Shown: positions 1 to 27,555, counted from the first letter of the stretch. The stretch: 64,000 nucleotides of DNA from Escherichia coli (GCF_050920415.1 NZ_CP169309.1), one strand, 5' to 3'. Numbers and translations are program-made. Notes: generated by a model from the sequence alone, not told the origin.

Positions 1-23
1 AGACAGATTTCTTTAAAATATAA

Positions 24-740
24 TTAGAGATTTGCGACGTTATGATAAACTTTTTGAACATCGTCGTCATCTTCAAGGGCATCAACAAGCCCTTCAAAGA
101 TTTCTAAATCTTCTGGGGAAAGCTCAACTTCAGATTGAGCAATCATTTCTAATTCTGTTGTTGAGAACTCAGTGATTCCAGCTGCTTTTAGAGCCGCGAT
201 TCCTTTATGAAGGTCAGTTGGTTCAGTATAAATAACAATGTTACCTTCTTCTTCGGTCACATCGCGAACATCAACTTCAGCTTCAAGCAAAATTTCAAAA
301 ATATGGTCCGGGTCTGTCCCTTTAAATACAATCACACCCGTATTGTCAAACATATAGCTGACAGAACCTGCCGCTCCGATATTGCCACCTTTTTTATTGA
401 AAATTGTGCGAACGTTAGCAATTGTACGGTTAACATTGGAAGTCAATGTCTCGGCGATAATCATTGAGCCATTTGGACCAAAGCCTTCATAACGTCCCTG
501 CACGAACGTTTCATCTCCGCCGCCTTTGGCTTTATCAATTGCTTTATCAATAACGTGCTTTGGAACTTGTGCCTGCTTCGCACGTTCAATAACGAATTTT
601 AAAGATGTGTTTAATTCTGGATCGGGTTCACCTTGTTTGGCAGCAGCATAGATTTCTACACCGAATTTTGCATAAATTTTAGACGTTGCACCGTCTTTAG
701 CCGTTTTTTTAGCAACAATATTGGCCCATTTACGTCCCAC
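24..740 (-). CDS. yeeN: YebC/PmpR-family transcriptional regulator YeeN
   Basis: 238-aa ORF ([17 protein letters not shown]...) recognised as E. coli YeeN. It is AT-rich and adjacent to amn as in K-12. Confidence 0.9.
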
Positions 741-994
741 TGGAATGATCTCCTCGAAAATTTATTTACATTACTGGTAAATCGTTAACATGCGTTAATT
801 CGACATATTATATCATAACAGGAAAAATCTCGTCTATTAGAAATAAAAATATTCTAAATCCATAATCTTATATTTAATCTCATAAAAACTAATGTTGTTG
901 GCGGATTTTTTTATAATTGTGTTTTGAAAGCATACTTGCTTTTAATATATGGAAATCATTAAGGCTATAATAAAACTTGTATCCGCCCCAGGAA

Positions 995-1026
995 GCAAAC
1001 AGCCTGCTTTATTGCAGGCTATTTGC
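995..1026. terminator. Stem-loop between convergent ends of the yeeN upstream region and amn
   Basis: GCAAACAGCCTGC-TTTATT-GCAGGCTATTTGC inverted repeat about 55 nt downstream of the amn stop. No clear U-run. Confidence 0.3.
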
Positions 1027-1081
1027 TGGATGACTTACTAAATCCTTCACATCTATTCCTGATAAAAAGGAACAGAACTTA

Positions 1082-2536
1082 TTACCGGAACGGCGGTTCA
1101 TTAAAGGTTCGTAATTTACGTGAATGCAGTCGGTCGCCTTCTGCGCGCAGCAAATCGATCGCACGAATGCCAATTTGCAGGTGTTCGGAAATAGCGCCTT
1201 CATAAAAACGGTTAGCCTGACCGGGAAGTTTAATCTCACCATGCAACGGTTTATCTGAAACACACAGTAGTGTCCCGTATGGCACGCGGAAACGATATCC
1301 TTGCGCGGCAATAGTTGCACTTTCCATATCAATTGCTACGGCCCGGCTTAAGTTAAAACGAAGTGCAGAAGCTGAGTAACGTAATTCCCAGTTCCTGTCA
1401 TCTGTGGTTACCACAGTGCCAGTACGTAGCCGCTGTTTAACTTCCTCTCCGGGCCTGCCGCTGACTAACTTGGTAGCGTCATAAAGCGCACGTTGCACTT
1501 CAGCAATGCTCGGAATAGGAATATCGGGCGGCAGTACCGCATCAAGAACGTGGTCATCGCGTAAATAAGCGTGTGCAAGTACATAATCTCCAATGGCCTG
1601 GCTTTCACGTAAGCCACCACAGTGACCAATCATCAACCAGACATCCGGGCGCAGCACCGCCAGATGATCGCAGATGGTTTTAGCATTTGACGGTCCCACG
1701 CCAATATTCACCAGAGTAATACCCTGACCATCGGCGGTAATTAAATGCCATGCTGGCATCTGGTGTTTTTTCCATGCAAGGTCGGAAATGGCTTCTTCTG
1801 GCGCTTCGGTTTCGGCGGTGATCCAGTTCCCGCCAGCACAAGAAAGGGCAATGTAGGGACTATCAGGGTCGAGGATCTGGCTGCATCCCCAACGAACGAA
1901 TTCATCCACATAACGTGTGTAGTTGGTAAACAAGACGAACGGCTGAAAATGTTCAACTGGCGTACCGGTATAATGGCGCAACCGCGCGAGGGAGAAATCG
2001 ACGCGGCGCGCATCAAAATGCGATAGCGGGGAGAATTCAGTTGGATGATAAATGCCGTCTGCAGTTTCATCGCCAATTTGCGCCAGTTCTGTTGTCGGGA
2101 AGTAGCGAGTTAACCCAGCGCTCATTGAGCGATCAAGTGTCAATTCAGAGCCATCGATGACATAAGGATAAGGGATTTCATGCTGCGAGGGTTGCACCGA
2201 GATATGCGCACCATAATCCTGATACAGCAACGTAAGTTGTTCATTCAGATACGAACGAAAGAGAGTAGGGCGAGTAATCGTGGTGGTGTAGCTGCCTGCG
2301 TGAGTAAAACGACCAAATGCGCGCGTTTTGGGGGGATTTGTTGTGCTACCGTCCCAGGTTACGGTCAGTGATGGATAGACAAAAAGACCTTCTTTACGGG
2401 CATTTTCATCAGGTAATTCGCCACTTTTAATATAGTTGCCAATGGCATTGCGTAAAGCGACTACAGATTGCTCATACAGCGCGTCGAGTTTTTCCAGTGC
2501 CTGAGCTGGGGTCAGACCGGAGCCCTTATTATTCAT
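1082..2536 (-). CDS. amn: AMP nucleosidase
   Basis: Start taken at MNNKGSGLTPAQALEKLDALYEQS (internal Met of the 536-aa ORF), giving 484 aa. Full-length match to remembered E. coli Amn. Confidence 0.93.
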   Translation of the reverse strand: MNNKGSGLTPAQALEKLDALYEQSVVALRNAIGNYIKSGELPDENARKEGLFVYPSLTVTWDGSTTNPPKTRAFGRFTHAGSYTTTITRPTLFRSYLNEQLTLLYQDYGAHISVQPSQHEIPYPYVIDGSELTLDRSMSAGLTRYFPTTELAQIGDETADGIYHPTEFSPLSHFDARRVDFSLARLRHYTGTPVEHFQPFVLFTNYTRYVDEFVRWGCSQILDPDSPYIALSCAGGNWITAETEAPEEAISDLAWKKHQMPAWHLITADGQGITLVNIGVGPSNAKTICDHLAVLRPDVWLMIGHCGGLRESQAIGDYVLAHAYLRDDHVLDAVLPPDIPIPSIAEVQRALYDATKLVSGRPGEEVKQRLRTGTVVTTDDRNWELRYSASALRFNLSRAVAIDMESATIAAQGYRFRVPYGTLLCVSDKPLHGEIKLPGQANRFYEGAISEHLQIGIRAIDLLRAEGDRLHSRKLRTFNEPPFR

Positions 2537-2637
2537 GTGTGTCTCCTGTTCCATACAATTACCGCACTTCCGATAGTATGTCACAGGAATGTGAAACAAA
2601 AGTGTAAGGCGAAGATCGGATGATCTTCGCCTGACTA

Positions 2638-3954
2638 TCAAGCGTGTTGATTGTCTTTCATCAACAAAGCGGTCATTGCGGAAATCAGGCATCCAGCCAG
2701 TAAATAAATGGCGACGCTATGCCAGTTCCCGGCAAAGTAAGTGATAAGTGCAGCGGCAATGAAAGGTGTAAATCCACCGCCAACCACACTGGCAACCTGA
2801 TATCCGACTCCAGCGCCACTATAGCGATAACTGGCACCAAACATTTCGGTAAACATCGGTTGTTGCACGCACACCACCATGTCATGCGCAATGTTTGCCA
2901 GCATTATGGAGAAGAAAACTATCCAGAAAATAGATTGTGCTTCAAGCGCCATAAAGAAAGGAAATGCGCTCAACGTTCCGATTAACGCACCTGTGATATA
3001 AACTCTGCGGCGACCAAAACGATCGGCAAGCCAGGCAAAACAGGGAATTGTCAGACAGCTTAGTCCACCTACCAGCAAACCGATATTAAGGAAAAGTTCG
3101 CGCGGTAACCCCATATTTTGGGTTGAATAGTTAAGCGCAAAGGCGGTAACGATGTACATCGTCAGCAACTCGCACAGTCGTAGCGCAATAATCTTCAGAA
3201 AAGCACCGGGATGTCGTAACAGTGCTTCGATAACCGGGATGCGTTTTTGCGCTGCCGCTTGATTATGTTGCTGTTGTTCAAATTCCGCGGACTCCTCCAT
3301 GCCATTACGCACCCACAATGCTCCCAGCACCAGTACGATGCTAAACAGGAAAGGAATACGCCAGCCCCAGCTTAGAAACTGTTCGTCAGTCGTCATCATA
3401 CTGATCAGTGAAACCAGTCCGGTCGAAAGCAGTAAACCTACTCCGTAGCCAACTTGTACACCGCTACTGTAAAAGGCTTTTTTATTTTTCGGTGCACTTT
3501 CAACGGAAAGTAACGCCGCGCCTCCCCATTCGCCGCCGACGGCAAATCCCTGAATGGCACGCAGTGTCACCAGTAAAATGGGGGCCCACCAACCTATGGT
3601 CGAGAAGGAAGGAAGAATGCCAATCAAGGCTGTCGCGATGCCCATCATCCAGACGGTCAGCATTAACATGCGCTTACGTCCCAGTCGGTCGCCAAAGTGA
3701 CCGAAAATGACACCGCCGAGCGGACGGAACAGGAATCCGACACCAAAGGTGGCAAATGCGGCGAGCGTTCCCATAGCCGGGCTTACTTGCGGGAAAAACT
3801 CGCGATTAAACACCAGTGCGGCGGTAATGCCATAGAGTAAAAAATCATACCAGTCGACGACGGCACCAGCGAAACTGCCTAACGCAGCTCGTCGGGCGCG
3901 ACTTAACGAAAGCGTCCCTTCATCGGGACGAGTGGAGATGAGCGTGGAGTCCAT
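2638..3954 (-). CDS. shiA: Shikimate/H+ MFS transporter
   Basis: 438-aa 12-TM MFS ORF in the K-12 shiA position between amn and yeeL. Confidence 0.88.
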   Translation of the reverse strand: MDSTLISTRPDEGTLSLSRARRAALGSFAGAVVDWYDFLLYGITAALVFNREFFPQVSPAMGTLAAFATFGVGFLFRPLGGVIFGHFGDRLGRKRMLMLTVWMMGIATALIGILPSFSTIGWWAPILLVTLRAIQGFAVGGEWGGAALLSVESAPKNKKAFYSSGVQVGYGVGLLLSTGLVSLISMMTTDEQFLSWGWRIPFLFSIVLVLGALWVRNGMEESAEFEQQQHNQAAAQKRIPVIEALLRHPGAFLKIIALRLCELLTMYIVTAFALNYSTQNMGLPRELFLNIGLLVGGLSCLTIPCFAWLADRFGRRRVYITGALIGTLSAFPFFMALEAQSIFWIVFFSIMLANIAHDMVVCVQQPMFTEMFGASYRYSGAGVGYQVASVVGGGFTPFIAAALITYFAGNWHSVAIYLLAGCLISAMTALLMKDNQHA

Positions 3955-4259
3955 AATGATCCTGTTTGTACTGTCTTTTTATAATTAGTATGGAAAAGGT
4001 AACTCACATTGCCGTCGATCTATAAACGAACCTTATGAGACTACCTCGACAGAGCGCATCTGCAAATGATTTTATGGCTGATTAACGGCAACATGAAAAA
4101 TTCGATGGAAGATGAAATCGCAGGAGTTGCATAAGGATTGAGCAGAGCACCTACAGTTTTGAGATATGAAACATAAAAGTCCGCATATGCACAAAATTGC
4201 ACCCTGATGATTCTGATAGACTGCATTGCATTTTAACCAGTAGGGAGGCGAGGTTAGGT

Positions 4260-5330
4260 ATGTTTTTAGCATCATTGTTGAGACGTATTGCATTTAGTTA
4301 CTACGATTATAAAGCTAATAATTTCAATATTGAAAAAACAGAGTTTGTTGTCATCCATATTCCCGATCAGATTGGCGATGCTATGGCTATCTTTCCAGTG
4401 ATTCGGGCGCTTGAATTGCATAAAATCAAGCATCTTTTAATTGTTACTTCGACAATTAATTTAGAAGTCTTTAATGCGCTCAAACTTGAACATACTAAAT
4501 TAACATTAGTCACAATGACTATGCAGGATCACGCAACATTAAAAGAAATAAAAGATTTAGCGAAGAACATAACACAGCGATACGGTACGCCGGATCTTTG
4601 TATAGAGGCGATGCGTAAAAAGAACCTGAAAACGATGTTATTTATCAGTCAGTTGAAAGCAAAAACGAATTTTCAGGTTGTCGGTTTAACCATGAAGTGC
4701 TATTCCCCTTTGTGTAAGAACGCCTCCCGGATGGATCAACATCTCCGGGCTCCCGTACCCATGACATGGGCGTTTATGATGCGTGAAGCGGGTTTTCCTG
4801 CAGTCAGGCCAATATATGAATTACCATTAAGCGAGCAGGTAATAAATGAAGTACGTGAGGAATTGTGCACTTTAGGATCTTACATTGCGCTTAATTTAGA
4901 TGGCAGCGTGCAGGAACGCACATTTTCGTTATCAGTAGCTGAGAAACTCATCGCCAAAATTCAAAGTGATAATGATATGCCAATAGTCATTGTTCATGGA
5001 CCAAAAGGGGAAGATAAAGCCCGGAAATTAGCGGGTTGTTATAATAATGTCTACCGGCTATCCTTATCACCCTCGATTAAACGTTCAGCAGCAATCATAA
5101 AAGATGCTTATATCGCAATAACCCCTGATACCTCAATATTACATATGGCAAGTGCCTATAATACCCCCGTCGTTGCAATTTATGCTGATTACAAAACGCG
5201 GTGGCCTGCGATGGCAGATATCTCGGAGTCAGTGGTCGTTGGGCAAAAAATTGATCATATAAGTTTGGATGAATTCGGAAAGGCGCTAAAAAGTGCTTTG
5301 GAGAGAGTATGTGTCAGTACTTACGTATAG
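4260..5330 (+). CDS. yeeL: Glycosyltransferase family 9 (heptosyltransferase-like) protein, apparently intact
   Basis: Start chosen at MFLASLLRR, preceded by GGGAGG. The C-terminal ITPDTSILHMASAYNTPVVAIY motif is typical of GT9. This is the K-12 yeeL position, where the gene is a pseudogene. Confidence 0.75.
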   Translation: MFLASLLRRIAFSYYDYKANNFNIEKTEFVVIHIPDQIGDAMAIFPVIRALELHKIKHLLIVTSTINLEVFNALKLEHTKLTLVTMTMQDHATLKEIKDLAKNITQRYGTPDLCIEAMRKKNLKTMLFISQLKAKTNFQVVGLTMKCYSPLCKNASRMDQHLRAPVPMTWAFMMREAGFPAVRPIYELPLSEQVINEVREELCTLGSYIALNLDGSVQERTFSLSVAEKLIAKIQSDNDMPIVIVHGPKGEDKARKLAGCYNNVYRLSLSPSIKRSAAIIKDAYIAITPDTSILHMASAYNTPVVAIYADYKTRWPAMADISESVVVGQKIDHISLDEFGKALKSALERVCVSTYV

Positions 5331-5706
5331 AGGGTAATGCCGATCTATGCTGAACAGGGGACATTAATACCCTGAGGTTGGTCAATCACCACAAAAAAAG
5401 CCTTTGAATCAAAGCAATACTCACCGAATAATAAGGCAACCTGAACTTAAATCCCCGTTAACTGCCATACATTATTATGACTTGCACTGATGTAATTAGC
5501 TAAACATTATCGTGATTTGACTAAATAGCAAAAATGATAGCTATTAAAAATAGCTCATATACTTTGTTTCCCGCTGCCGTAGAATAGATGGTCCTTCCAT
5601 GTTCAAGCATTTATTCAAAAAAAGGGGGCTCGACTGTCTTCAGATAAACAGAGAGGGATTGTAAAGTCGAGTGCCCCTAATGGAGCACTCTATAAAAAAT
5701 CAACAA

Positions 5707-13695
<7,989 letters not shown>

Positions 13696-14108
13696 GCTTA
13701 CCTTCCCTGAACGAGCTAACATAAATGCGCCCTTTCTAGCACAGCGAAAAAATATAAATCCTGATAGCAATATGATTGAAAATTAATAACTTTTCGTTAA
13801 GCAGTTTTGGGTGTGAGTTGCAAGAGGGGAGACTACTGAATAACTCAGTTTAATAATTGAGGGGGCAATGGTGACGAATATAGGGACGGAGTAGAGAAGA
13901 TAGTGCTGAACTCTTTGCCAGCAGAAGGTTATGTGGCACAAAAATAACCGTAACTTCTCACTCTCGACAGGAAAGCTGTAGACGGCGTCCATAACAAAAC
14001 GCCCCCAACCATAAGGTCGAGGGCGCTTAAGATGACAAACCCGCTCTTCGTTAAAGAATCAATGCTTAATGTAGATGAGTTGCATTGCACGATAAAAGCG
14101 AATTTTTA

Positions 14109-14129
14109 GAATTTGGCTCCTCTGACTGG
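14109..14129. repeat. Distal att-like direct repeat (partial tRNA-Asn 3' end)
   Basis: Identical 21-mer to 22382-22402. 16 nt correspond to the asnT 3' end. Confidence 0.85.
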
Positions 14130-14462
14130 GATCGCCGTAGCCATTAACAGGCTGATTGGTAAAGCTAAAAAAATTTGAGTTTGTCAAGACCACCAGAATG
14201 ACCACCATTTTAAAGTAACATTTGAAGTTTACTCAGTAGCACCTTTAGCTTCACTTACAATCAATTAACCTGTGAAGATAGCTGTACCTACAATCGCAAT
14301 AACTTATTACAGATCCGACGACAAACATCACCTGTTATCCACTCTGGCACTACCGTGCATGATAATCAATAAGTCGGGTGCTGGCTTGCAAGGCAATTGC
14401 GTTGTAATGTACCAAATCCCAGTTCGCCTTCACTCTAAAATGCCCCGACGTTTCGAACGCGT

Positions 14463-15341
14463 TTACGGTAAATAATGCGTGACAATCTGCAGGAACTCAT
14501 CCCGCATCTGGTTGTCGATTTTCGGATTCCATGCCACACCAATGTTCCATATGATCTGCTTTCCCCACAGAGTAATCAGCTTGACTCCTACAGGTAAAAA
14601 ATTCTCGACGCTGGCGGGTAGCAGCGCGAGACCATTCCCTCCGGCTATCAATGCTAGCAGGGAATGAATATCATTCGTCGCAGAGATTGGCTCAATGATG
14701 AGTTCATTATCCCGCAGGAACGCAGTCGTTTGCTCCGCCAGACAAGGGCTGACCGCTGGATCCATGCATAAAATCGGATAGATTGCCAGCGTACGCTGGA
14801 GATCGGTGGGATCAATATCGACGGCTACCGGGACAGCCAACACCAGATTTTCTTTATTTATTAAGCGAGAGGCCAATAATTCTGTTACCGGCATACGAAC
14901 AAAACCAGCATGCAGTTCACCTTCCATCAACATCCTAGCTTGTACGCTGGAGGCAATTTGGCTGATAACAACGTCGCAGTCGGGAAATTTCTGGCGAAAA
15001 GTGTTAATCCAAACTGGTGTGCTTTTAAACGAAGATATACCAAATCCGAGCACCAGTTTACCCGTACTCCCCTTTTGGATTTCTCTGGCGTAGGTTAAAA
15101 AATCGTGGTGGGATTTCAGCAACTCATAAGCTTTAGCAAACAACTGCCTGCCAACCATCGTCAACACTGCCCCGTGGCGACCACGCAGGAAAAGCTGCCC
15201 TCCGGTCTTCTGTTCGAGCATCTTGATCTGCTTTGAAAGCGCAGGTTGTGTCAGAAATAAAGCTTCTGCAGCTTTATTGTAGTTTCCCTTTTCCGCCAGT
15301 GTCACAAATGCACGCAGCAGCCTTATATCTATTCCTGACAT
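14463..15341 (-). CDS. LysR-family transcriptional regulator
   Basis: 292 aa with an N-terminal wHTH (LRAFVTLAEKGNYNKAAEALFLTQPALSKQIKMLE) and a LysR substrate-binding fold. Divergent from the downstream operon. Confidence 0.88.
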   Translation of the reverse strand: MSGIDIRLLRAFVTLAEKGNYNKAAEALFLTQPALSKQIKMLEQKTGGQLFLRGRHGAVLTMVGRQLFAKAYELLKSHHDFLTYAREIQKGSTGKLVLGFGISSFKSTPVWINTFRQKFPDCDVVISQIASSVQARMLMEGELHAGFVRMPVTELLASRLINKENLVLAVPVAVDIDPTDLQRTLAIYPILCMDPAVSPCLAEQTTAFLRDNELIIEPISATNDIHSLLALIAGGNGLALLPASVENFLPVGVKLITLWGKQIIWNIGVAWNPKIDNQMRDEFLQIVTHYLP

Positions 15342-15396
15342 TTATTGAATCCTGAAAAATTGGAATTATACAAATACTCGCAACAGATGACATGAT

Positions 15397-15414
15397 GCGT
15401 AAAATGATTTACGC
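15397..15414. promoter_or_regulatory. Candidate LysR operator (perfect palindrome)
   Basis: GCGTAAAATGATTTACGC lies in the 226-bp divergent intergenic region between the LysR gene and the operon. Confidence 0.35.
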
Positions 15415-15567
15415 CGAGATCCCCTTGGTTTGTCAAACTCAGAAACGCCATACCTGCTGCTCTTGGTTCTATTTAACACTCACTAATGCGCAGGTTATTT
15501 ATAAAAATTGACCTCATAAATCATTCAAAAACATTAATTATATAAATACAATAAGGATTAAATATTT

Positions 15568-16167
15568 ATGCCAAATATTGCCGTTCTCACTAATGACCTG
15601 CAGTATGAGTTTACCTACAAAATAACACGCTCTCCAGAAATTCTGGCGCAAAAACTCGTCCAGTTTAATCAGTTTCTCGATGGCATTCGCGCTCTGGATC
15701 AATCCATTATCCACCTGCAACTTATCAACGATCCTAATGACCCGGCGGTACAAAAGCGCTATCGCAACCGCGAAGCGGGCATTCCTGCACTAGCTGGTCG
15801 CCCGGAAAACCAGATTATCGATAAAGTATACCGCCCCACAGATCTGGTTGTAGTCAAGGGCAGAGACAGCGGTTTTTTTAATAACGATCTCGACGAAATC
15901 CTCCAGCAACTCGGGGTAAAAACCGTAATCGTTACCGGGTTGCAAACTCATGTTTGCGTGCAGACCACTGCAGCGGATGCCTTCTTTCGCGGCTATAACG
16001 TCTGGGTACCGGGCGACTGCGTGTTCGCTCCTTCGTCCGAAGATACAGAGCGTGCACTCGAGTGGCTTGCCAGCTATTGCGCAACTGTAGCACCTTCTGC
16101 GGAAATTTTATCAATATTGCAAAAACAGAACGATCTGCCTGAGCGCGGCGAAAGGGAAGCATCATGA
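15568..16167 (+). CDS. Isochorismatase/cysteine-hydrolase superfamily protein
   Basis: 199 aa with D-K-C triad context (LTNDLQYEF; VVVKGRDSGFF; VTGLQTHVCVQTTA). AAGGA RBS upstream. The stop overlaps the next start (ATGA). Confidence 0.8.
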   Translation: MPNIAVLTNDLQYEFTYKITRSPEILAQKLVQFNQFLDGIRALDQSIIHLQLINDPNDPAVQKRYRNREAGIPALAGRPENQIIDKVYRPTDLVVVKGRDSGFFNNDLDEILQQLGVKTVIVTGLQTHVCVQTTAADAFFRGYNVWVPGDCVFAPSSEDTERALEWLASYCATVAPSAEILSILQKQNDLPERGEREAS

Positions 16168-17195
16168 GCTTAACCCAGACGCTAAATCATGAAGAGGTCG
16201 TTGTACTGGATCATGGCACCGGGGCGAAATTAAGCCGCGAGTTGGTTGAAAAAATTGCTAGCATTCTCGGTGACACCTATCTGGGCGTGATGGAAGATAG
16301 CGCGGTGCTGGGGTTATCCACCAGGCGAATTGCCTTCACCACCGACTCCTTTGTTGCCACGCCGCTGATTTTCGGCAACGGTGATATTGGCAAAATCGCC
16401 GTATGCGGCACCGTTAACGATCTCGCTGTCAGTGGGGCTCGTCCCCTTTACATCACACTCAGTCTTATTATTGAGGAAGGTATGCCGATGGCTGATCTGG
16501 TCAGAATCATCGAGTCCGTACGTGAAACGGCTCGTGAGGCAGAGGTCAAGATTGTCGCTGGTGATACCAAGGTCGTAGGTAAAGGTGAAGCAGATCGGCT
16601 GTTTATCAATACTGCTGGCATCGGCGTGTTTGAACATCCGCCAGTCTCAGTTAAGAACGTGCGTCCGGGGCAGAAAATAATCCTGAGCGGATATATCGGC
16701 AATCACTCGATTCACCTGCTGTCGATGCGGGAAGGATTGGGGTTCGAGCGAAATATTCTTAGTGATTGCGCACCGCTGAACCACATTATTGACAAACTTA
16801 TCAGCAACATCCCTGAAGGCAAAATAGCGTCAATGCGAGACGTTACGCGCGGTGGGCTGTCCGCTGTTTTACACGAACATGCGCGCGCAACAAATTATCA
16901 GATTCATTTCGACCAGCCATCTTTGCCCATACAGCCGGAAACCGCCATGGCAGCTAATATGCTGGGTGTTGACGTCATTAATCTCGCTAATGAAGGTTGT
17001 TTGTGCCTGTTTGTTGAACCTGAGTATGCTCAGAAGGTACTACATTTGCTGCAGGAGCATCCTGTCGGCAAGCACGCGACAATTATCGGCGAGATCACCG
17101 CTGTCTCGGGTACTGAAGTCTATATGATTGAAGCTGATGGAACACACACAGAAGTCGAGGAATTATATGGCGCAGAATTACCCAGACTCTGTTGA
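16164..17195 (+). CDS. HypE-like (AIR-synthase-related, PurM fold) protein with C-terminal Cys
   Basis: 343 aa, colinear with E. coli HypE (FTTDSFV, GDIGKIAVCGTVNDLAVSGA, GDTKVV, FINTAG, RDVTRGG, NLANEG). It ends ...AELPRLC, compared with HypE ...PRIC. Confidence 0.85.
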   Translation: MSLTQTLNHEEVVVLDHGTGAKLSRELVEKIASILGDTYLGVMEDSAVLGLSTRRIAFTTDSFVATPLIFGNGDIGKIAVCGTVNDLAVSGARPLYITLSLIIEEGMPMADLVRIIESVRETAREAEVKIVAGDTKVVGKGEADRLFINTAGIGVFEHPPVSVKNVRPGQKIILSGYIGNHSIHLLSMREGLGFERNILSDCAPLNHIIDKLISNIPEGKIASMRDVTRGGLSAVLHEHARATNYQIHFDQPSLPIQPETAMAANMLGVDVINLANEGCLCLFVEPEYAQKVLHLLQEHPVGKHATIIGEITAVSGTEVYMIEADGTHTEVEELYGAELPRLC

Positions 17196-19545
17196 GCTTC
17201 ACGAGACGCCGGAAACCCGGCGTTACCGCATCTGTGGGGTCGTTCAGGGCGTTGGATTTCGTCCCTTTGTTCACCGACTGGCCCGCACCTATGGTGCCAC
17301 CGGCTGGGTGTTAAACGATTCAGAAGGCGTGTTGCTTGAGCTGCAGGCATCCGGCACGGTTATTGCCAGAATCATGGACAAACTGGTGACCGAGGCACCA
17401 CCACTGGCAAAAATCATCAGTACGCAGGAAGTTAGCCCAACGGATACCAGAGCGCACTATGAAACGTTCAGCATCCGTAAAAGCCGCGATCATACCAGCA
17501 TGGACACGATTATCCCGCCAGATACCAACGTCTGCAGCGATTGCCTGCGCGAGATAAGCGATCCTGATAATCATCGTTATCGTTACGCTTTCACCAATTG
17601 CACCAATTGTGGGCCGCGCTATTCCATTATTCTTGGTATGCCTTACGATCGTGCCCAGAGCACTATGCGTAAATTCCCTTTATGTCCAACCTGTGAGCGT
17701 GAATACAACGATATTGAGGATCGACGCTATCATGCCCAGCCCAATGCCTGCCCAGTTTGCGGCCCACAGTTGCAACTTACCGATCGACAGGGCACATCCG
17801 TTCACACAGATGATATTGTCAAATTTGCCATTACGAAACTAAAAGAAGGCGGAATTCTTGCAATAAAGAGCCTTGGTGGCTTTCATCTCGTGGCCGATGC
17901 TTGCAATGAGAATGCTGTCAATGAACTTCGGCAACGCAAGCGAAGAGACGCCAAACCTTTTGCAGTGATGGTCGCGGATGTGGAAAGCGCGTCGCGTATT
18001 GCTTTCATCCCCCCCTGTAATCACAAATTGCTGGAAAGCCCGCAGCGTCCCATTGTCTTGTTGTATAAGCGCAACGTCCTGCTGGCGAGTACCGTTGCGC
18101 CACATAATCCGAACATCGGTGTAATGCTGCCTTCAACGCCGCTTCAGCATTTATTGCTGGAAGACCCGTCTCTGCCGATCCTGATTATGACCAGCGGTAA
18201 TATTTCCGGTCATCCGATCGTCTTTGACAACGACATGGCAATTAAGCAACTCGGGAAAATCGCGGATTACTTCATTCTGAATAATCGCGATATTCATACG
18301 CGTGTTGACGATTCGGTGGTCCGCACGGTGTTTCTCAACGACGCCATTACCTCGCAGCTATCGTTTTTGCGCCGCTCCCGCGGTTACGCGCCATACCCTA
18401 TTCATCTACCTTACGCAGTGGATTCCGTTATCGCGCTCGGGGCGGAGCTAAAAAACACGATCAGCATCGGCAAAGGAAAACAGGTTTTTCTGAGCCAGCA
18501 TATTGGCGATCTTAAGAATAACGTGACTTTTAAATCACATATCGAATGTATTGATCATCTTCAAAACCTGCTGAACGTGAAGGCAAATGTCGTGGCCTGC
18601 GATTTGCATCCCTCTTTCCGCTCTACCCGGCATGCGCTGGAGAATTTAGAGCATCAGGTTGTTCAGGTTCAACACCATCACGCGCATATGGCATCCTGCA
18701 TGGCGGAAAATGGCCTGTCAGGTACTACTCTAGGCGTAATTTTTGACGGTACAGGATATGGCACCGACGGCACCATTTGGGGCGGTGAGTTTCTCGTTGG
18801 TGATTTCGAAAAATTCGAGCGTGCAGGATGCTTGCGTTCAATGACCCTGCCCGGAGGCGATCGGGCAGTTAAAGAGCCGCTGCGCGTCGGCATCTCCTTA
18901 CTGGTGGAAACCTTCGGCGAAGATATCAGTACGCTCGCAGTACCAGGCTTGCAGGCGCTCCAGCCTCAGCAGCGCGATATATTCAGTAAAATGGCGACCA
19001 GAAAAATCAACACCACCACGACCAGCAGCATGGGCAGACTATTTGACGGCATCGCCGCGCTGATGGGCGTTTGCACTCAGGTGGAGTACGAAGCCCAGGC
19101 GGCCATTGAACTGGAAGCGCTGCTGCAGTGTAAACTTCATATGACGGCTCCGTTCAGCTACATCATTGCCGATGTCGAGAATAAGCTCGAGGTGGATTAT
19201 CGCCCGATGATAAGGGAACTGGTGCAATGCTTCAGCCAGCCCGGTTTTGATATGGCCGAACTAAGTCGGCGCTTTCACTCTACCATCGTCGACATGATTT
19301 GCGAGGTCTGTAAACGTCTGGTGGCACGCTCAGGCACGCAACAAATTGTCCTGAGCGGCGGCGTGTTCTGCAATGAATTCATCCTCGTTAATTCTCTTAA
19401 CAGTCTGGAGTCTTGTGGATTCCGGCCTTACAGCCATCAGTTAGTTCCGACTAACGATGGTGGTATTTCATTGGGGCAAGTGGTTATTGCTACCGCATAC
19501 ACTCGCGCAACGCGCAATAAAAATCTGGAGAGAGAAAATGCATAG
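17167..19545 (+). CDS. HypF-like carbamoyltransferase (acylphosphatase, 2x Zn-finger, YrdC-like and Kae1-like domains)
   Basis: Start taken at MAQNYPDS. Motifs present: VQGVGFRPFV; CSDC..CTNCGPRYS; CPTC..CPVCGPQL; GGFHLVADA; QHHHAHMASC; DGTGYGTDGTIWGGEF; NDGGISLGQ. It overlaps the hypE-like 3' end by 29 nt. Confidence 0.85.
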   Translation: MAQNYPDSVELHETPETRRYRICGVVQGVGFRPFVHRLARTYGATGWVLNDSEGVLLELQASGTVIARIMDKLVTEAPPLAKIISTQEVSPTDTRAHYETFSIRKSRDHTSMDTIIPPDTNVCSDCLREISDPDNHRYRYAFTNCTNCGPRYSIILGMPYDRAQSTMRKFPLCPTCEREYNDIEDRRYHAQPNACPVCGPQLQLTDRQGTSVHTDDIVKFAITKLKEGGILAIKSLGGFHLVADACNENAVNELRQRKRRDAKPFAVMVADVESASRIAFIPPCNHKLLESPQRPIVLLYKRNVLLASTVAPHNPNIGVMLPSTPLQHLLLEDPSLPILIMTSGNISGHPIVFDNDMAIKQLGKIADYFILNNRDIHTRVDDSVVRTVFLNDAITSQLSFLRRSRGYAPYPIHLPYAVDSVIALGAELKNTISIGKGKQVFLSQHIGDLKNNVTFKSHIECIDHLQNLLNVKANVVACDLHPSFRSTRHALENLEHQVVQVQHHHAHMASCMAENGLSGTTLGVIFDGTGYGTDGTIWGGEFLVGDFEKFERAGCLRSMTLPGGDRAVKEPLRVGISLLVETFGEDISTLAVPGLQALQPQQRDIFSKMATRKINTTTTSSMGRLFDGIAALMGVCTQVEYEAQAAIELEALLQCKLHMTAPFSYIIADVENKLEVDYRPMIRELVQCFSQPGFDMAELSRRFHSTIVDMICEVCKRLVARSGTQQIVLSGGVFCNEFILVNSLNSLESCGFRPYSHQLVPTNDGGISLGQVVIATAYTRATRNKNLERENA

Positions 19546-20278
19546 TTCTGCGAACCGTATTGCCGCTGTTTTATTCGATATGGATGGTGTCCTTATTGAT
19601 TCCAATGCGGTGATTGAGCGCGGCTGGGCTGAAGGCGCACAGATGTTTGGCAAGACGCTAACGGAAGAGGATATCGTCAGGCATATTCACGGACAGCCCG
19701 GCCCGCATACCATTCGCGCCCTGTTCAGCGACCTTTCCCTGGAAGATCAAAAGAAGGTCCAGTCACATATCATCCACGTTGAAAATACCGCTGATTACGA
19801 CCCGATCCCTGGAGTTAGCGAACTTATCCAGGCGTTGCATAAGGCTGGCATCAGTGTGGGGATTGTCACTAGCGGCTGGCGGTCGAAAATCGATCGTATT
19901 ATGGAGATGCTGCAAATCACGCCCTGTATTTCAGTGATTGTCGAACGTGATGATGTCGTGCGCGGCAAGCCTTATCCCGATCCTTATCTGCTTGCCGCAG
20001 AGCGGTTTCATCTTGCACCGTCCAGAACACTGGTCTTTGAGGATTCAAGAAGCGGCGTAACATCTGCTGTTACAGCAGGCGCAATTTGTGTTGGCATCGG
20101 TACAGACAGTCTGAAAGAGTGCGGTGCCGTGCTTGCAATTACAGATTTTCGTAATGTGAAAATCACCTCACAGACAGGCGAAAAAGTAGTGATTGCCTTT
20201 ACTCCAGAGCACCAGATGGAGATGGAAACTCAGAGCTCTCGTAAGAAAACATCCTGTACCACAAGAGAAGAGTGCTAA
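19538..20278 (+). CDS. HAD-IA family phosphatase (beta-phosphoglucomutase-like)
   Basis: Motifs FDMDGVLIDS, VTSG, GKPYPDPY and FEDSRSGV. The ATG lies 8 nt inside the hypF-like 3' end. Confidence 0.8.
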   Translation: MHSSANRIAAVLFDMDGVLIDSNAVIERGWAEGAQMFGKTLTEEDIVRHIHGQPGPHTIRALFSDLSLEDQKKVQSHIIHVENTADYDPIPGVSELIQALHKAGISVGIVTSGWRSKIDRIMEMLQITPCISVIVERDDVVRGKPYPDPYLLAAERFHLAPSRTLVFEDSRSGVTSAVTAGAICVGIGTDSLKECGAVLAITDFRNVKITSQTGEKVVIAFTPEHQMEMETQSSRKKTSCTTREEC

Positions 20279-21471
20279 TGAATATCACACAGAAGGGACG
20301 CTGGGCTGTCACTATGCTATTTTTTATCAATGGCTTCGTCACCGGAGGTTGGGCTGTGCAAATTGCACAGCTTGTACCACGCTTTGGCGTGACCGACAAA
20401 GTGATCGGCCATTTAATTCTGATCTTCGGATTCGGTGCACTAACCATGATGCCCATATCAGGCATTCTGATGGAAAAGATGGGGACACAAATCGTAACGC
20501 GTATTTTTGCCCTTGCAGCCTCCCTGGCATTAATTCCGGTTGGTTTAGCCACCACCCCATTAGTGTTGATGCCAGCGTTATTTGTTCTTGGTGCGATGAT
20601 TGGTGCCATGAATGTAGCGATGAACTCGAATGCCGTGGCGGTGGAGAGATCACTCTCACAAGCGATTTTATCCTCCTGCCATTGCTTCTGGAGTATCGGC
20701 CTATTTGCGGCGGGCTCGATAGGCGGCCATCTTGTTGAACAATTTGGCTTTTTGACGCATATCTTTTTGATTAGTGCCGTGGCCTTAATACTGACGCTGA
20801 TTATCGCTCCGGCCATTTTTAAAGACATACAGACGGTTAAATCCACCAGCAGACAGACCACCCGGTTGCCTCGTTCTCCGGCGATTTATCTGATTGGATT
20901 GATGGCTTTTCTGGCCATGATCCCTGAATGCGCTGTTGTTGACTGGTCGTCACGCTATTTGATTAAAAATCTCAATGCAAAAACAGAAATCGCCAGCCTT
21001 GCCTTCGCCTGCTTTGCTGTAGCAATGGCCTTGTTTCGCTTTATGGGTGACGTGATCCGCAACCGCTTCGGCGCAATATTAATTATACGAATCTCCAGCT
21101 TACTGGCAGGCGCTAGCCTATTGTTGAGCGCACTGGCACACAATCCCTGGCAGGCGATCTGCGCATTTACCTTAGCGGGAATCGGCATCGCCAACCTTGT
21201 GCCCATTGTCTTTTCCGCAGCGGGAAATCAGCCCAATATTTCCACCAACACAGGAATGAGCATTGCCACAACCATTGGGTATTTAGGCACGCTAATGGCC
21301 CCTGCGCCTATTGGCTATATTGCGGAAATAACCGGTTTTCCAGTGGTTTATTGCGGACTAGCTTTCATGTCGGGAATTATCTTTTTGCTGGCACCACTGG
21401 TTCGGGGGGCAGAAATCTCTGTACAGCGGCAGCGAGCCTCAAACAAACACCAGAATACCGGAGCGTTGTAA
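20278..21471 (+). CDS. MFS transporter
   Basis: ~397 aa and highly hydrophobic, with a 12-TM pattern. The ATG overlaps the HAD stop (TAATG). Confidence 0.8.
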   Translation: MNITQKGRWAVTMLFFINGFVTGGWAVQIAQLVPRFGVTDKVIGHLILIFGFGALTMMPISGILMEKMGTQIVTRIFALAASLALIPVGLATTPLVLMPALFVLGAMIGAMNVAMNSNAVAVERSLSQAILSSCHCFWSIGLFAAGSIGGHLVEQFGFLTHIFLISAVALILTLIIAPAIFKDIQTVKSTSRQTTRLPRSPAIYLIGLMAFLAMIPECAVVDWSSRYLIKNLNAKTEIASLAFACFAVAMALFRFMGDVIRNRFGAILIIRISSLLAGASLLLSALAHNPWQAICAFTLAGIGIANLVPIVFSAAGNQPNISTNTGMSIATTIGYLGTLMAPAPIGYIAEITGFPVVYCGLAFMSGIIFLLAPLVRGAEISVQRQRASNKHQNTGAL

Positions 21472-21922: not shown

Positions 21923-22054
21923 ATGAGCAAATTAAGTAGTGAAATGAAGGCCCTGACGAAGAAAGCAGGCGGCAGCTTCAAAACGGTAAATGACCGTATC
22001 CATATTACAAAACGGTTCAGTGAGCATTTACGCGAACTGAACATCCAGATCCGG
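21923..22054 (+). pseudogene. N-terminal fragment (~44 codons) of a tyrosine-recombinase/integrase gene
   Basis: MSKLSSEMKALTKKAGGSFKTVNDRIHITKRFSEHLRELNIQIR resembles the N-termini of an enterobacterial island integrase family as I remember it. The reading frame loses sense after 22054. Confidence 0.45.
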
Positions 22055-22225
22055 CGGGTATGCGCCAAGACTGACTCTGGATTCTTTTCCGTTGAAACGA
22101 TATTTGAGATACCAGATGCGTGAACCGCCCGGATTGACGAGCAGATACAGACCGTGAGAGTCGGAGAGTTTTACCGGACGGGAAGAGGTTTTTAACTTGC
22201 GGATTTTAGAATCGTTTAAAGACAT
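22028..22225 (-). pseudogene. P4-type integrase, N-terminal fragment only
   Basis: MSLNDSKIRKLKTSSRPVKLSDSHGLYLLVNPGGSRIWYLKYRFNGKESRVSLGAYP is the typical P4-like Int N-terminus. Homology ends near 22055 and the catalytic domain is absent. It lies adjacent to asnT. Confidence 0.8.
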
Positions 22226-22386: not shown

Positions 22387-22462
22387 TGGCTCCTCTGACT
22401 GGACTCGAACCAGTGACATACGGATTAACAGTCCGCCGTTCTACCGACTGAACTACAGAGGA
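22387..22462 (-). tRNA. asnT: tRNA-Asn (GUU)
   Basis: The reverse complement reads TCCTCTGTAGTTCAGTCGGTAGAACGGCGGACTGTTAATCCGTATGTCACTGGTTCGAGTCCAGTCAGAGGAGCCA, 76 nt with CCA. Confidence 0.95.
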
Positions 22463-25705: not shown

Positions 25706-25845
25706 ATGACGAAATGCAATAACTCTTAGGAAACAAGAGCATAGTTTTCTCAGGTGTATTTACCTATCTTATTGAAATGAAATAAATTATGTCGATGATT
25801 TGAGGTTGATGACAAACGAAACATAACTTGATGCGATCTGTGTGG

Positions 25846-25875
25846 GCCGGATAAGGCGCTCACACCGCATCCGGC
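25846..25875. repeat. REP (repetitive extragenic palindrome) element
   Basis: GCCGGATAAGGCGCTCACACCGCATCCGGC, the classic E. coli REP consensus, between msrQ and zinT. Confidence 0.8.
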
Positions 25876-25908
25876 AGGGATAACGCGTACTTTGTCGGCA
25901 ATATGAAG

Positions 25909-26544
25909 TTATAGAGATGATTTGTTGTGAACCTGCTTGCGTAATCGGTTGAAAAGGGAAAGTAGCTTTTTATACCGTAAGGCTAAAAGCAGTACAGCCA
26001 GCCCAGCGTAGATGAGTGGCTGCGGTGAAATAATCTTCACTGACCACAGATAATGTATTGGAGCCAGGATCGCGACAAGATAGACGAAGTTATGCAACTG
26101 TTGCCAGTGTTTGCCGAGTTTTCGCTGCATCGCCTGGGTTGAAGTGAACGCTAAAGCAAGCAAAATTACCCAACTAATAATACCTAACGTTAAATAAGGT
26201 CGGGTGATTAACTCCTTGCCTAATAACGCCAGATTATTCACGCCCAGCTCCAGTAATGCGTAACTGGTTAAATGCAGTGTCGCCCAGGCAAAGCACCATA
26301 AGCCTAACAGGCGTCGAGTCCGCATCAATAACGGCTGTTTTGCGTAACGTGCCAGAGGTGTAATTAACAAGGTCGCCAGCAAAAATTTCAGTGCAGTGCG
26401 TCCGGTAAAATGCTGAATATCTTTCACCGGATCGGCTCCTAGTCCACCGTGATTGATCGCCCAGGCAAGCCAGAGCAACGGCAACAATCCGGCAAGATGC
26501 AGGCAAAGTTTTAGCCATGTCACCTGTTTTGCTGTCAGACGCAT
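25909..26544 (-). CDS. msrQ: Methionine sulfoxide reductase heme-binding membrane subunit
   Basis: 211-aa polytopic membrane ORF abutting msrP (YedZ). Confidence 0.9.

Positions 26545-27555
<1,011 letters not shown>

Follow-up and report, generated by a model that had tools for sequence, protein, structure and literature searches.

A 64,000-nt stretch of the Escherichia coli chromosome (hereafter, the window), which is 100% identical to the corresponding region of strain MFDS1022581, carries a group of six genes between the gene for a giant Ig-like adhesin (5707-13770, minus strand) and tRNA-Asn/mtfA. Two of these genes encode homologs of HypE and HypF, textbook single-purpose enzymes for the synthesis of the cyanide ligands of [NiFe]-hydrogenases. 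Each of the component families is already known; what is new is the system, in which a HypEF lineage independent of hydrogenase forms a fixed three-gene module with a cysteine hydrolase (hydrolase, hypE, hypF; hereafter, the cassette), which exists among enteric bacteria in a minimal and mobile form. The genes and the control region of the islet that carries this form are as follows:

14463-15341, minus strand: LysR-type transcriptional regulator, 292 aa (PF00126 and PF03466), divergent from the other five genes
15342-15567: divergent control region, 226 bp, with an interrupted inverted repeat and promoter-like hexamers on both strands
15568-16167, plus strand: isochorismatase-fold cysteine hydrolase, 199 aa (PF00857, 112 bits), the first cassette gene
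16164-17195, plus strand: HypE-like carbamoyl dehydratase paralog, 343 aa, ending in ...GAELPRLC (TIGR02124, 415 bits)
17167-19545, plus strand: HypF-like carbamoyltransferase paralog, 792 aa, with four modules (TIGR00143, 788 bits)
19538-20278, plus strand: HAD-IA phosphatase, 246 aa, sugar-phosphatase-like (PF13419 and PF00702)
20278-21471, plus strand: MFS transporter, 397 aa (PF07690)

The start codons of all six genes are the RefSeq choices in the identical region of MFDS1022581, and both these and the Pfam and NCBIfam profile searches bear out the genes, coordinates, and domains proposed in an initial annotation of this DNA. The same annotation held the five plus-strand open reading frames (ORFs) to be translationally coupled, and all four junctions, when read directly in the sequence, are exactly as claimed: ATGA at 16164-16167 between the hydrolase and hypE genes, the hypF ATG at 17167 with an overlap of 29 nt, the HAD ATG at 19538 with an overlap of 8 nt, and TAATG at 20276-20280 between the HAD and MFS genes.

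Canonical HypF and HypE convert carbamoyl phosphate to an S-carbamoyl and then an S-cyano group on the C-terminal Cys of HypE. The islet HypE scores well above the cut-off of its family model (415 bits versus 251.6 for TIGR02124), contains the PurM-type domains PF00586 (AIRS) and PF02769 (AIRS_C), and terminates with Cys343 in a PRLC tail, i.e., with a C-terminal cysteine of the PR(I/V)C type. The Lys of its GDTKVV motif and the Glu of its ANEG motif align column for column with K134 and E272 of T. kodakarensis HypE (2Z1E), which we take to be the catalytic residues for dehydration. Likewise, the islet HypF scores 788 bits against TIGR00143 (cut-off 466) and contains, in order, an acylphosphatase domain (PF00708), two zf-HYPF domains (PF07503), a YrdC-like domain (PF01300), and a Kae1-like module (PF17788 and PF22521). 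Across the protein, the motifs CSDC...CTNCGPR, CPTC...CPVCGP, KSLGGFHL, HHHAH, DGTGYGTDGTIWGGE, and NDGGISLGQ could all be located; among the 81 cassette HypFs that we compared, five of seven motif patterns match in 77-81 sequences. Both proteins are 39% identical to their K-12 counterparts, and the islet HypE is 57-66% identical to cassette HypEs from other phyla. The profile searches therefore place both proteins in the HypE and HypF families above curated cut-offs, and the PRLC ending, the four HypF modules, and the motifs that had been quoted for them are all confirmed. Since the families, domain order, PRxC cysteine, Lys/Glu pair, and HypF motifs are all retained, the islet HypE and HypF most likely form the same S-carbamoyl and S-cyano intermediates as the canonical pair.

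Despite these shared features, the cassette proteins can be readily distinguished from the canonical ones. In pairwise comparisons of the cassettes from E. coli, Paraburkholderia, Burkholderia multivorans, Rhizobium, Sorangium, Streptomyces, and a Lachnospiraceae metagenome-assembled genome (MAG), HypE identity is 56-86% within the group versus 38-45% to canonical HypE, while HypF identity is 42-77% within the group versus 31-43% to canonical HypF, the canonical references being the K-12 and P. phymatum proteins. The cassette HypEs compared are drawn from Proteobacteria, Myxococcota, Actinomycetota, and Firmicutes, and even a canonical HypE encoded by the same genome or replicon is still only 38-45% identical to its cassette counterpart. 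The C-terminal tail follows the same division: ELPRLC is found in 64 of 66 locus-derived cassette HypEs and a PRLC ending in 118 of the best 120 database matches, whereas all six canonical HypEs checked (K-12, P. phymatum, and four solved HypE structures) end in PRIC. By sequence, the cassette proteins group separately from the canonical ones, and the Leu of the PRLC tail is a signature of this group.

Relatives of the hydrolase are encoded by 196 species (one genome per species), and we fetched 80 of the corresponding loci, using a third-codon-position GC filter against antisense ORFs when clustering the ORFs of high-GC loci. The order hydrolase, HypE-like, HypF-like is kept in about 76 of the 80 loci, and the exceptions (L008, L014, L058, and L076) look truncated or decayed. 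Six further contexts were identified from HypEs with a PRLC tail; five of them, including PKS-NRPS (polyketide/non-ribosomal peptide synthetase) and B12-radical-SAM contexts, have an isochorismatase gene in the cluster, and the only one without is a Lachnospiraceae contig that ends directly after hypF. The hydrolase is conserved across phyla and is an obligate third member of the cassette rather than an accessory. Thus, in the survey of neighborhoods suggested by the initial annotation, the hydrolase-HypE-HypF core proved to be conserved, but the HAD and MFS genes accompany it only in some lineages.

What surrounds the core is frequently biosynthetic. NRPS, ATP-grasp, or pyridoxal-phosphate (PLP) enzyme genes are found near the cassette in 61 of 80 loci, an amine-forming PLP enzyme in 46 (among these are diaminobutyrate transaminase-family genes), and exporter genes in 41. 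In Sorangium, the cassette lies downstream of a gene for a 4160-aa NRPS and upstream of those for an ABC transporter and a glutathione S-transferase. Streptomyces exhibits three types of loci. The first has LysR, an EamA exporter, a haem-oxygenase-like protein, and a GNAT-like protein before the trio, followed by a class-III aminotransferase, MFS, an M20 peptidase, and ATP-grasp-like ligases; in the second, the trio is followed by a double ATP-grasp ligase, MFS, and a PLP decarboxylase; and in the third, NRPS modules and a thioesterase precede the trio, with a serine hydroxymethyltransferase-like PLP enzyme, a C26 amidotransferase, and more NRPS genes after it. B. multivorans encodes EamA, GFA, the trio, a diaminobutyrate-family transaminase (TIGR00709, 523 bits, cut-off 401.6), and a penicillin-amidase-type hydrolase. 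Outside of the enterobacteria, several accessory proteins (265-aa haem-oxygenase-like, ~210-aa GNAT-like, ~150-aa, and 392-aa) have weak or no Pfam and NCBIfam matches. In one case, a bare trio adjoins a transposase gene.

A few of these loci deserve separate mention. In B. multivorans (L091, 3980-15369, and L090), an extended conserved block comprises the EamA exporter, the GFA-domain protein, the 265-aa haem-oxygenase-like and ~210-aa GNAT-like proteins, a ~146-aa protein, the trio, the diaminobutyrate-type transaminase, and the penicillin-amidase-type hydrolase, and the middle part of this block recurs in Streptomyces, Psychromonas, and Paraburkholderia loci. In Rhizobium leguminosarum pRLG203 (L093, 9998-14983), an inserted DMT-family transporter gene separates hypE from hypF, the upstream genes encode an ABC importer, SDR proteins, and a GntR regulator, and the hydrolase is the most divergent one seen (43% identity). 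The Lachnospiraceae MAG (L089, 8001-11318) encodes a HypE with the tail GAELPRLC and 62% identity to the islet HypE, followed by HypF; no isochorismatase gene is adjacent, and glycosyltransferase and polysaccharide genes adjoin the pair. A rearranged version (L099, 3874-13532) runs molybdopterin oxidoreductase, HypE, HypF, MFS, B12-binding radical SAM, and a His_biosynth-family protein, with the isochorismatase last.

The hydrolase itself is assigned to the isochorismatase fold by its PF00857 score (112 bits), its Asp-Lys-Cys triad, and its predicted structure, and its fold match to N-carbamoylsarcosine amidase and RutB supports the superfamily that had initially been proposed for it. No variation is seen from E. 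coli to Streptomyces in Asp10, Lys97, and Cys130 (15 of 15 sequences) or in the stretch CVQTTAADAFFRGY. RutB and BiuH are its best NCBIfam matches, but the scores of 53.7 and 50.7 bits are far under the respective cut-offs of 378 and 370, and it falls below the cut-off of every NCBIfam equivalog; its best sequence match in the PDB reaches 57 bits. The AlphaFold model (pLDDT 88.6, the predicted local distance difference test) finds maleamate amidase, RutB, biuret and triuret hydrolases, and N-carbamoylsarcosine amidase as the nearest solved folds at 22-28% identity and a TM-score of ~0.77. All of these enzymes cleave terminal amide or ureido C-N groups, with the cysteine attacking that carbon. 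The family is also compact: only 7 of 1.84 billion representative proteins match at E<=1e-30, after which scores drop to those of generic isochorismatases. Relatives with 49-83% identity are found in Citrobacter, Enterobacter, Salmonella, Serratia, Lonsdalea, and Buttiauxella and also in Burkholderia, Trinickia, Paraburkholderia, Sorangium, Cystobacter, Micromonospora, Streptomyces, and Kitasatospora. Thus, the islet hydrolase shares its fold and triad with RutB, BiuH, TrtA, N-carbamoylsarcosine amidase, and maleamate amidase, but constitutes its own family, whose fixed genetic link is to HypE/HypF and not to the catabolism of pyrimidines or cyanuric acid. RutB-type cysteine hydrolases pass through S-carbamoyl-enzyme intermediates, and their substrates end in -C(=O)NH2, which equals in size the group carried by carbamoylated HypE. 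By analogy, the -S-C(=O)NH2 or -S-CN group bound to HypE would be similar in size and kind to the groups targeted by the hydrolase's relatives. Because the hydrolase is the sole partner common to all contexts and is conserved as much as HypE, we infer that it acts upon the HypE-bound group in place of HypC/HypD.

The absence of a hydrogenase context, as originally remarked for this locus, extends to nearly all of its relatives. Using K-12 HypA/B/C/D and HycE/G/I as tblastn queries, neither hypA/B/C/D nor hydrogenase genes were detected in the window; among the ~90 loci scanned, hypA, hypB, and hypD were absent from every one, neither hypC nor hypD was found beside the cassette itself, and hypC and hydrogenase matches were confined to two Paraburkholderia loci (L071 and L073). 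The islet pair therefore does not belong to HypE/HypF by hydrogenase-maturation gene context, and E. coli already encodes the canonical genes: hypE is present in 5423 of 5426 complete genomes, which makes the islet hypE/hypF a second copy. In Paraburkholderia, a hupSL operon lies divergent from the cassette, ~4 kb upstream. However, the P. phymatum plasmid that carries the cassette also encodes a full canonical hypA-hypB-hypF-hypC-hypD-hypE set, so the cassette is not a substitute there. For these reasons, we rejected the idea that the cassette merely replaces canonical HypE/HypF, which had been raised as a potential refutation of the initial annotation; the hydrogenase link is limited to the two Paraburkholderia loci, both from a genus with the canonical set.

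The cassettes of the Mimosa-nodulating Paraburkholderia (L092, P. phymatum pBPHY02, 1-16056; L094, 3757-9872; L071 and L073) are located on a symbiotic plasmid in the order ectB-like, GNAT, small ORF, hydrolase, hypE, hypF, with the canonical hypABFCDE 12 kb away. Expression data are available for P. phymatum STM815 in bean nodules, where a nifA mutation changed transcript levels of Bphy_7266 (ectB-like transaminase), Bphy_7268 (GNAT), Bphy_7270 (cysteine hydrolase), Bphy_7271 (hypE), and Bphy_7272 (hypF) by log2 values of -7.6, -8.1, -6.3, -5.2, and -7.5, respectively (PMC8305402). The same study observed less 2,4-diaminobutanoate and did not tell the cassette genes apart from the hydrogenase hyp genes (PMC8305402). 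The homologous cassette is thus transcribed in vivo in P. phymatum nodules, and its inclusion within the NifA symbiotic regulon hints at a host-interaction role in beta-rhizobia.

In the enterobacterial form, the core is joined by LysR, HAD, and in many cases MFS genes, and Pfam matches (PF13419/PF00702 and PF07690) support the HAD-IA phosphatase and MFS transporter that had been named as operon partners. A HAD-IA gene directly follows hypF only in Enterobacterales, Burkholderia, Trinickia, and one deltaproteobacterial MAG, and MFS homologs come after the HAD gene in approximately half of the enterobacterial loci. The divergent LysR homolog is kept by the cassette at 49-89% identity in enterobacterial loci and 32-35% in Burkholderiaceae, and no NCBIfam equivalog reaches its cut-off for this protein. 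The control region shared by the LysR and hydrolase genes does have the length of 226 bp initially reported (15342-15567), but the "18-bp perfect palindrome" described within it is really GCGTAAA-ATGA-TTTACGC (15397-15414), i.e., 7-nt perfect arms around a non-palindromic 4-nt spacer. Among 14 related loci, none has an equivalent of this inverted repeat (GCGTAAA-N4-TTTACGC) in the corresponding intergenic region, and promoter-like matches in the control region are no more frequent than in shuffled sequence. In NCBIfam, the HAD protein best matches PRK11587, a sugar phosphatase, and the beta-phosphoglucomutase family, reaching the cut-off of neither; among solved structures, it is closest to TM_1254, a phosphorylated-carbohydrate phosphatase. 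In three Burkholderiaceae species, the HAD form additionally encodes a protein limited to the GlmS isomerase domain (292 bits to GlmS residues 277-588) as well as an amidohydrolase and a nitrilase-superfamily protein. These additional genes point to an acceptor of the fructose-6-phosphate/glucosamine-6-phosphate type, which is a lead rather than a demonstration. An anti-phage defense role was also considered and was rejected, as none of the six proteins matched any PADLOC defense model (0 families).

The interpretation that we favor, with a confidence only somewhat better than even, is that the islet encodes a hydrogenase-independent small-molecule pathway built around the hydrolase/HypE/HypF core. 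In such a pathway, (i) the HypF-like protein would use carbamoyl phosphate and ATP to place an S-carbamoyl group on Cys343 of the HypE-like protein, as suggested by the conservation of all HypF modules, and (ii) the HypE-like protein would carry out an ATP-dependent dehydration to an enzyme-bound thiocyanate, as suggested by its conserved PurM-type domains, catalytic Lys and Glu, and ELPRLC tail. (iii) The hydrolase might then assume the role of HypC/HypD, with Cys130 of its Asp-Lys-Cys triad taking or processing the C-N unit and delivering it to a nucleophile of a metabolite, most likely a primary amine, which could yield a cyanamide or a derivative, such as a guanidine, urea, or cyclic isourea. 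(iv) In enterobacteria, the acceptor could be a phosphorylated primary metabolite, the leading candidate from gene context being an amino-sugar phosphate, such as glucosamine-6-phosphate. (v) Finally, the HAD-IA phosphatase would remove the phosphate, the MFS transporter would export the product, and the divergent LysR would turn the operon on. Steps (i) and (ii) have strong sequence conservation and established HypEF chemistry as their basis, and the three-enzyme core probably attaches a carbamoyl-phosphate-derived C-N group to small molecules. Given that the cassette is found in NRPS and ATP-grasp biosynthetic clusters and that the HypEF reactions consume ATP, the "reverse or salvage route" entertained in the initial annotation seems unlikely. 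A bolder version of our interpretation, which we consider conceivable but rather doubtful, is that the trio serves as a portable "electrophilic cyanation" device, in which a protein-bound CN+ equivalent would generate N-cyano, guanidine, or cyclic isourea groups on amines, and that the enteric form (E. coli, Citrobacter, Enterobacter, and Salmonella diarizonae) would secrete an N-cyano or amino-oxazoline-type amino-sugar antimetabolite. If true, the trio would represent an unrecognized route to such groups in dozens of NRPS, ATP-grasp, and diaminobutyrate clusters.

Several considerations weigh against the proposed pathway. Steps (iii) and (iv) derive from gene context only, and the E. coli operon itself lacks an amine-forming enzyme, while the glucosamine-6-phosphate idea draws upon a gene of three Burkholderiaceae species plus a weak HAD subfamily similarity. 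Moreover, the structural relatives of the hydrolase hydrolyze rather than transfer, meaning the C-N unit could equally be released or destroyed; a divergent LysR together with MFS and hydrolase genes is also a typical catabolic-operon layout; and the Paraburkholderia cassette adjoins, and is co-regulated with, a hydrogenase operon.

Some of these same points favor other explanations. Were the hydrolase Cys or water to free cyanide, cyanate, thiocyanate, or cyanamide from HypE-SCN, the product could be a free C1-N toxin or signal, the remaining enzymes of each cluster using or tolerating this small molecule. The conservation of the trio (hydrolase 49-83%) probably suggests a universal substrate rather than the scaffold specific to each cluster, and the bare trio beside a transposase, the nitrilase-superfamily gene in the Burkholderiaceae loci, and the glutathione S-transferase (Sorangium) and GFA-type carbon-sulfur lyase (B. 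multivorans) encoded near the trio would all be compatible with this; glutathione S-transferases liberate HCN from organic thiocyanates. We nonetheless find such a product unlikely, since it assigns no role to the HAD phosphatase, which is invariable in the enterobacterial form, and small neutral molecules like HCN need no exporter, yet exporters are found in 41 of 80 loci. Two ATP per cyanide would also be costly compared with HcnABC, and a reductive release of CN- leaves a disulfide, for which the required reductant is not encoded. It is likewise imaginable, albeit quite improbable in our estimation, that the carbamoyl rather than the cyano group is transferred, with HypE as an S-carbamoyl carrier and the hydrolase acting as a RutB in reverse to give a ureido compound, for example N-carbamoyl-glucosamine phosphate. 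The folds closest to that of the hydrolase do act on ureido groups, RutB-type enzymes form an S-carbamoyl-cysteine, RutB and BiuH are its best, though far sub-threshold, NCBIfam matches, and N-carbamoyl-D-glucosamine is a known Streptomyces antibiotic. However, strong purifying selection acts on the ATP-dependent dehydratase portion of HypE, which retains Lys and Glu and is ~60% identical from one phylum to another, and a mere carrier would not need a conserved ATP-dependent dehydratase; one-protein carbamoyltransferases already serve in many clusters as well.

A catabolic or detoxifying operon for the LysR-induced import and breakdown of a phosphosugar, or a compound like it, with a ureido, cyano, or carbamoyl substituent would account for the usual inducible arrangement of divergent LysR, hydrolase, phosphatase, and MFS genes, as well as for the catabolic amidases among the hydrolase's relatives. 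We regard it as very unlikely, given that HypF and HypE consume ATP and build groups, with no reverse reaction known, that the same trio is found within NRPS, PKS-NRPS, and ATP-grasp clusters with exporters, and that several enterobacterial loci have no MFS gene. Least probable of all, to the point of being nearly dismissible, is that the islet encodes a spare or specialized maturation pair, which would supply cyanide ligands for E. coli [NiFe]-hydrogenases under particular conditions. The islet proteins do pass the HypE and HypF equivalog models, and the Paraburkholderia cassette is divergent to hupSL and NifA co-regulated with hydrogenase genes. Yet canonical hypE is already encoded by 5423 of 5426 E. 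coli, P. phymatum maintains a full hypABFCDE beside its cassette, hypC and hypD never adjoin the cassette, and only L071 and L073 among ~90 loci have a hydrogenase operon nearby. In addition, cassette HypE is 38-45% identical to canonical HypE with a tail signature of its own, and the Streptomyces and Sorangium contexts are peptide clusters.

When compared with known systems, the islet proteins share their families, domain order, and PRxC cysteine with canonical HypE/HypF (E. coli b2730/b2712; complex PDB 3VTI), but differ in having ELPRLC rather than PRIC, in never adjoining hypC/hypD, and in being linked to a cysteine hydrolase within secondary-metabolite-type clusters. TobZ, NodU, and GdmN are YrdC/Kae1-type O-carbamoyltransferases of biosynthetic clusters, which use carbamoyl phosphate and ATP via a carbamoyl-adenylate. 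These are single proteins that carbamoylate a metabolite directly, whereas the islet retains a full four-domain HypF together with a protein carrier/dehydratase and a hydrolase, which argues for chemistry beyond simple carbamoylation. A further parallel is found in kanosamine-type pathways, in which a sugar 6-phosphate is modified and then freed by the HAD phosphatase NtdB before export. The islet HAD is similarly akin to sugar-phosphate phosphatases, but the E. coli operon encodes no dehydrogenase or aminotransferase, and the likeness lies in the HAD and the Burkholderia GlmS-like gene. In agreement with the initial annotation, full-text literature searches, with subscription-only papers outside their reach, found no functional study of such a cassette and, besides the P. 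phymatum expression table, only a single remark from 2020. Kloosterman et al. noted Streptomyces hypE/hypF homologs beside an ATP-grasp gene, with other hyp genes absent, and suggested "a novel function" in one paragraph of a survey mining for RiPPs (post-translationally modified peptides of ribosomal origin), which included no experiments on them (PMC7794033). Their locus is of the same kind as the Streptomyces trio and ATP-grasp loci described here, but the remark did not recognize the partnership with the hydrolase, the occurrence of the cassette across phyla, or the HAD/MFS form of enterobacteria.

A HypEF lineage with its own hydrolase, encoded by at least 196 species in peptide- and amino-acid-type clusters, implies a recruitment for small-molecule biosynthesis. 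If so, it would provide a new enzymatic installation of a C-N group (nitrile, cyanamide, or guanidine) from carbamoyl phosphate. The combination of the hydrolase with a HypE ending in ELPRLC would offer a handle for genome mining, and an annotation error would be corrected, as all of these genes are now named "hydrogenase expression/formation protein". Since the enterobacterial five-gene operon is the smallest version and resides in a tractable host, its function is directly testable.

The six genes are included within an islet of 8.3 kb located at tRNA-Asn with a 21-bp direct repeat at both ends. Its boundary features are:

14109-14129, plus strand: left boundary, 21-bp direct repeat GAATTTGGCTCCTCTGACTGG, a copy of the tRNA-Asn 3' end plus 5 nt
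21923-22225: two integrase pseudogene fragments with phage-integrase N-terminal and Arm DNA-binding domains (RefSeq; L001, 22461-22763)
22382-22402, minus strand: right copy of the 21-bp repeat, overlapping the tRNA-Asn 3' end (pattern search)
22387-22462, minus strand: tRNA-Asn (ARAGORN)

There are two exact copies of GAATTTGGCTCCTCTGACTGG in the window versus 0 expected in shuffles. Most E. coli have an empty site, in which the sequence left of 14129 continues directly into tRNA-Asn, and only 16 of 5426 complete genomes carry the islet, 15 of them with the full region at >=99.2% identity and one with a truncated version. With its insertion at a tRNA 3' end, direct repeat, degraded integrase, patchy distribution, and empty sites, the islet has the hallmarks of a tRNA-associated island, and the suspected horizontal acquisition is therefore well supported. 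The GC content (0.44-0.52) is not distinct from that of the flanks, so composition speaks neither for nor against transfer. The six-gene unit is mobile as a whole, because it is also found on the Salmonella diarizonae plasmid p28NP1, beside a RepB replication gene and transposases, and in Citrobacter freundii at another genomic site; the recurrence of the same six genes agrees with their earlier description as self-contained. Within E. coli, the islet is probably no longer mobile, as its integrase has been reduced to fragments. These two short pseudogenes are in opposite orientation and are evidently the remains of the P4-type integrase that delivered the islet.

The truncated copy, from E. 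coli WL297 (NZ_CP128613.1, hit H16), is decayed and retains no more than the right-hand 65% of the region, without the genes for LysR and the hydrolase and with a shortened hypE that is annotated as "AIR synthase-related protein". Another unusual record is C. freundii pRHBSTW-00902_4 (L095), an 82-kb sequence typed as a non-mobilizable plasmid, in which the six-gene module lies beside ndh, nagZ, thiK, lpoB, and hinT. Given these core chromosomal genes, the record may represent a piece of chromosome and not a plasmid. Elsewhere in the window, the gene directly left of the islet (5707-13770, minus strand) encodes a YeeJ/invasin-type Ig-like adhesin with very repetitive Big domains, its longest ORF being 2687 aa and the RefSeq CDS 2662 aa. 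According to the annotation of the identical genome region, an IS2 copy adjoins zinT at ~25742-26970, and ~33090-36530 comprises a transposase fragment and three hypothetical genes along with a disrupted IS5 beside ompC.

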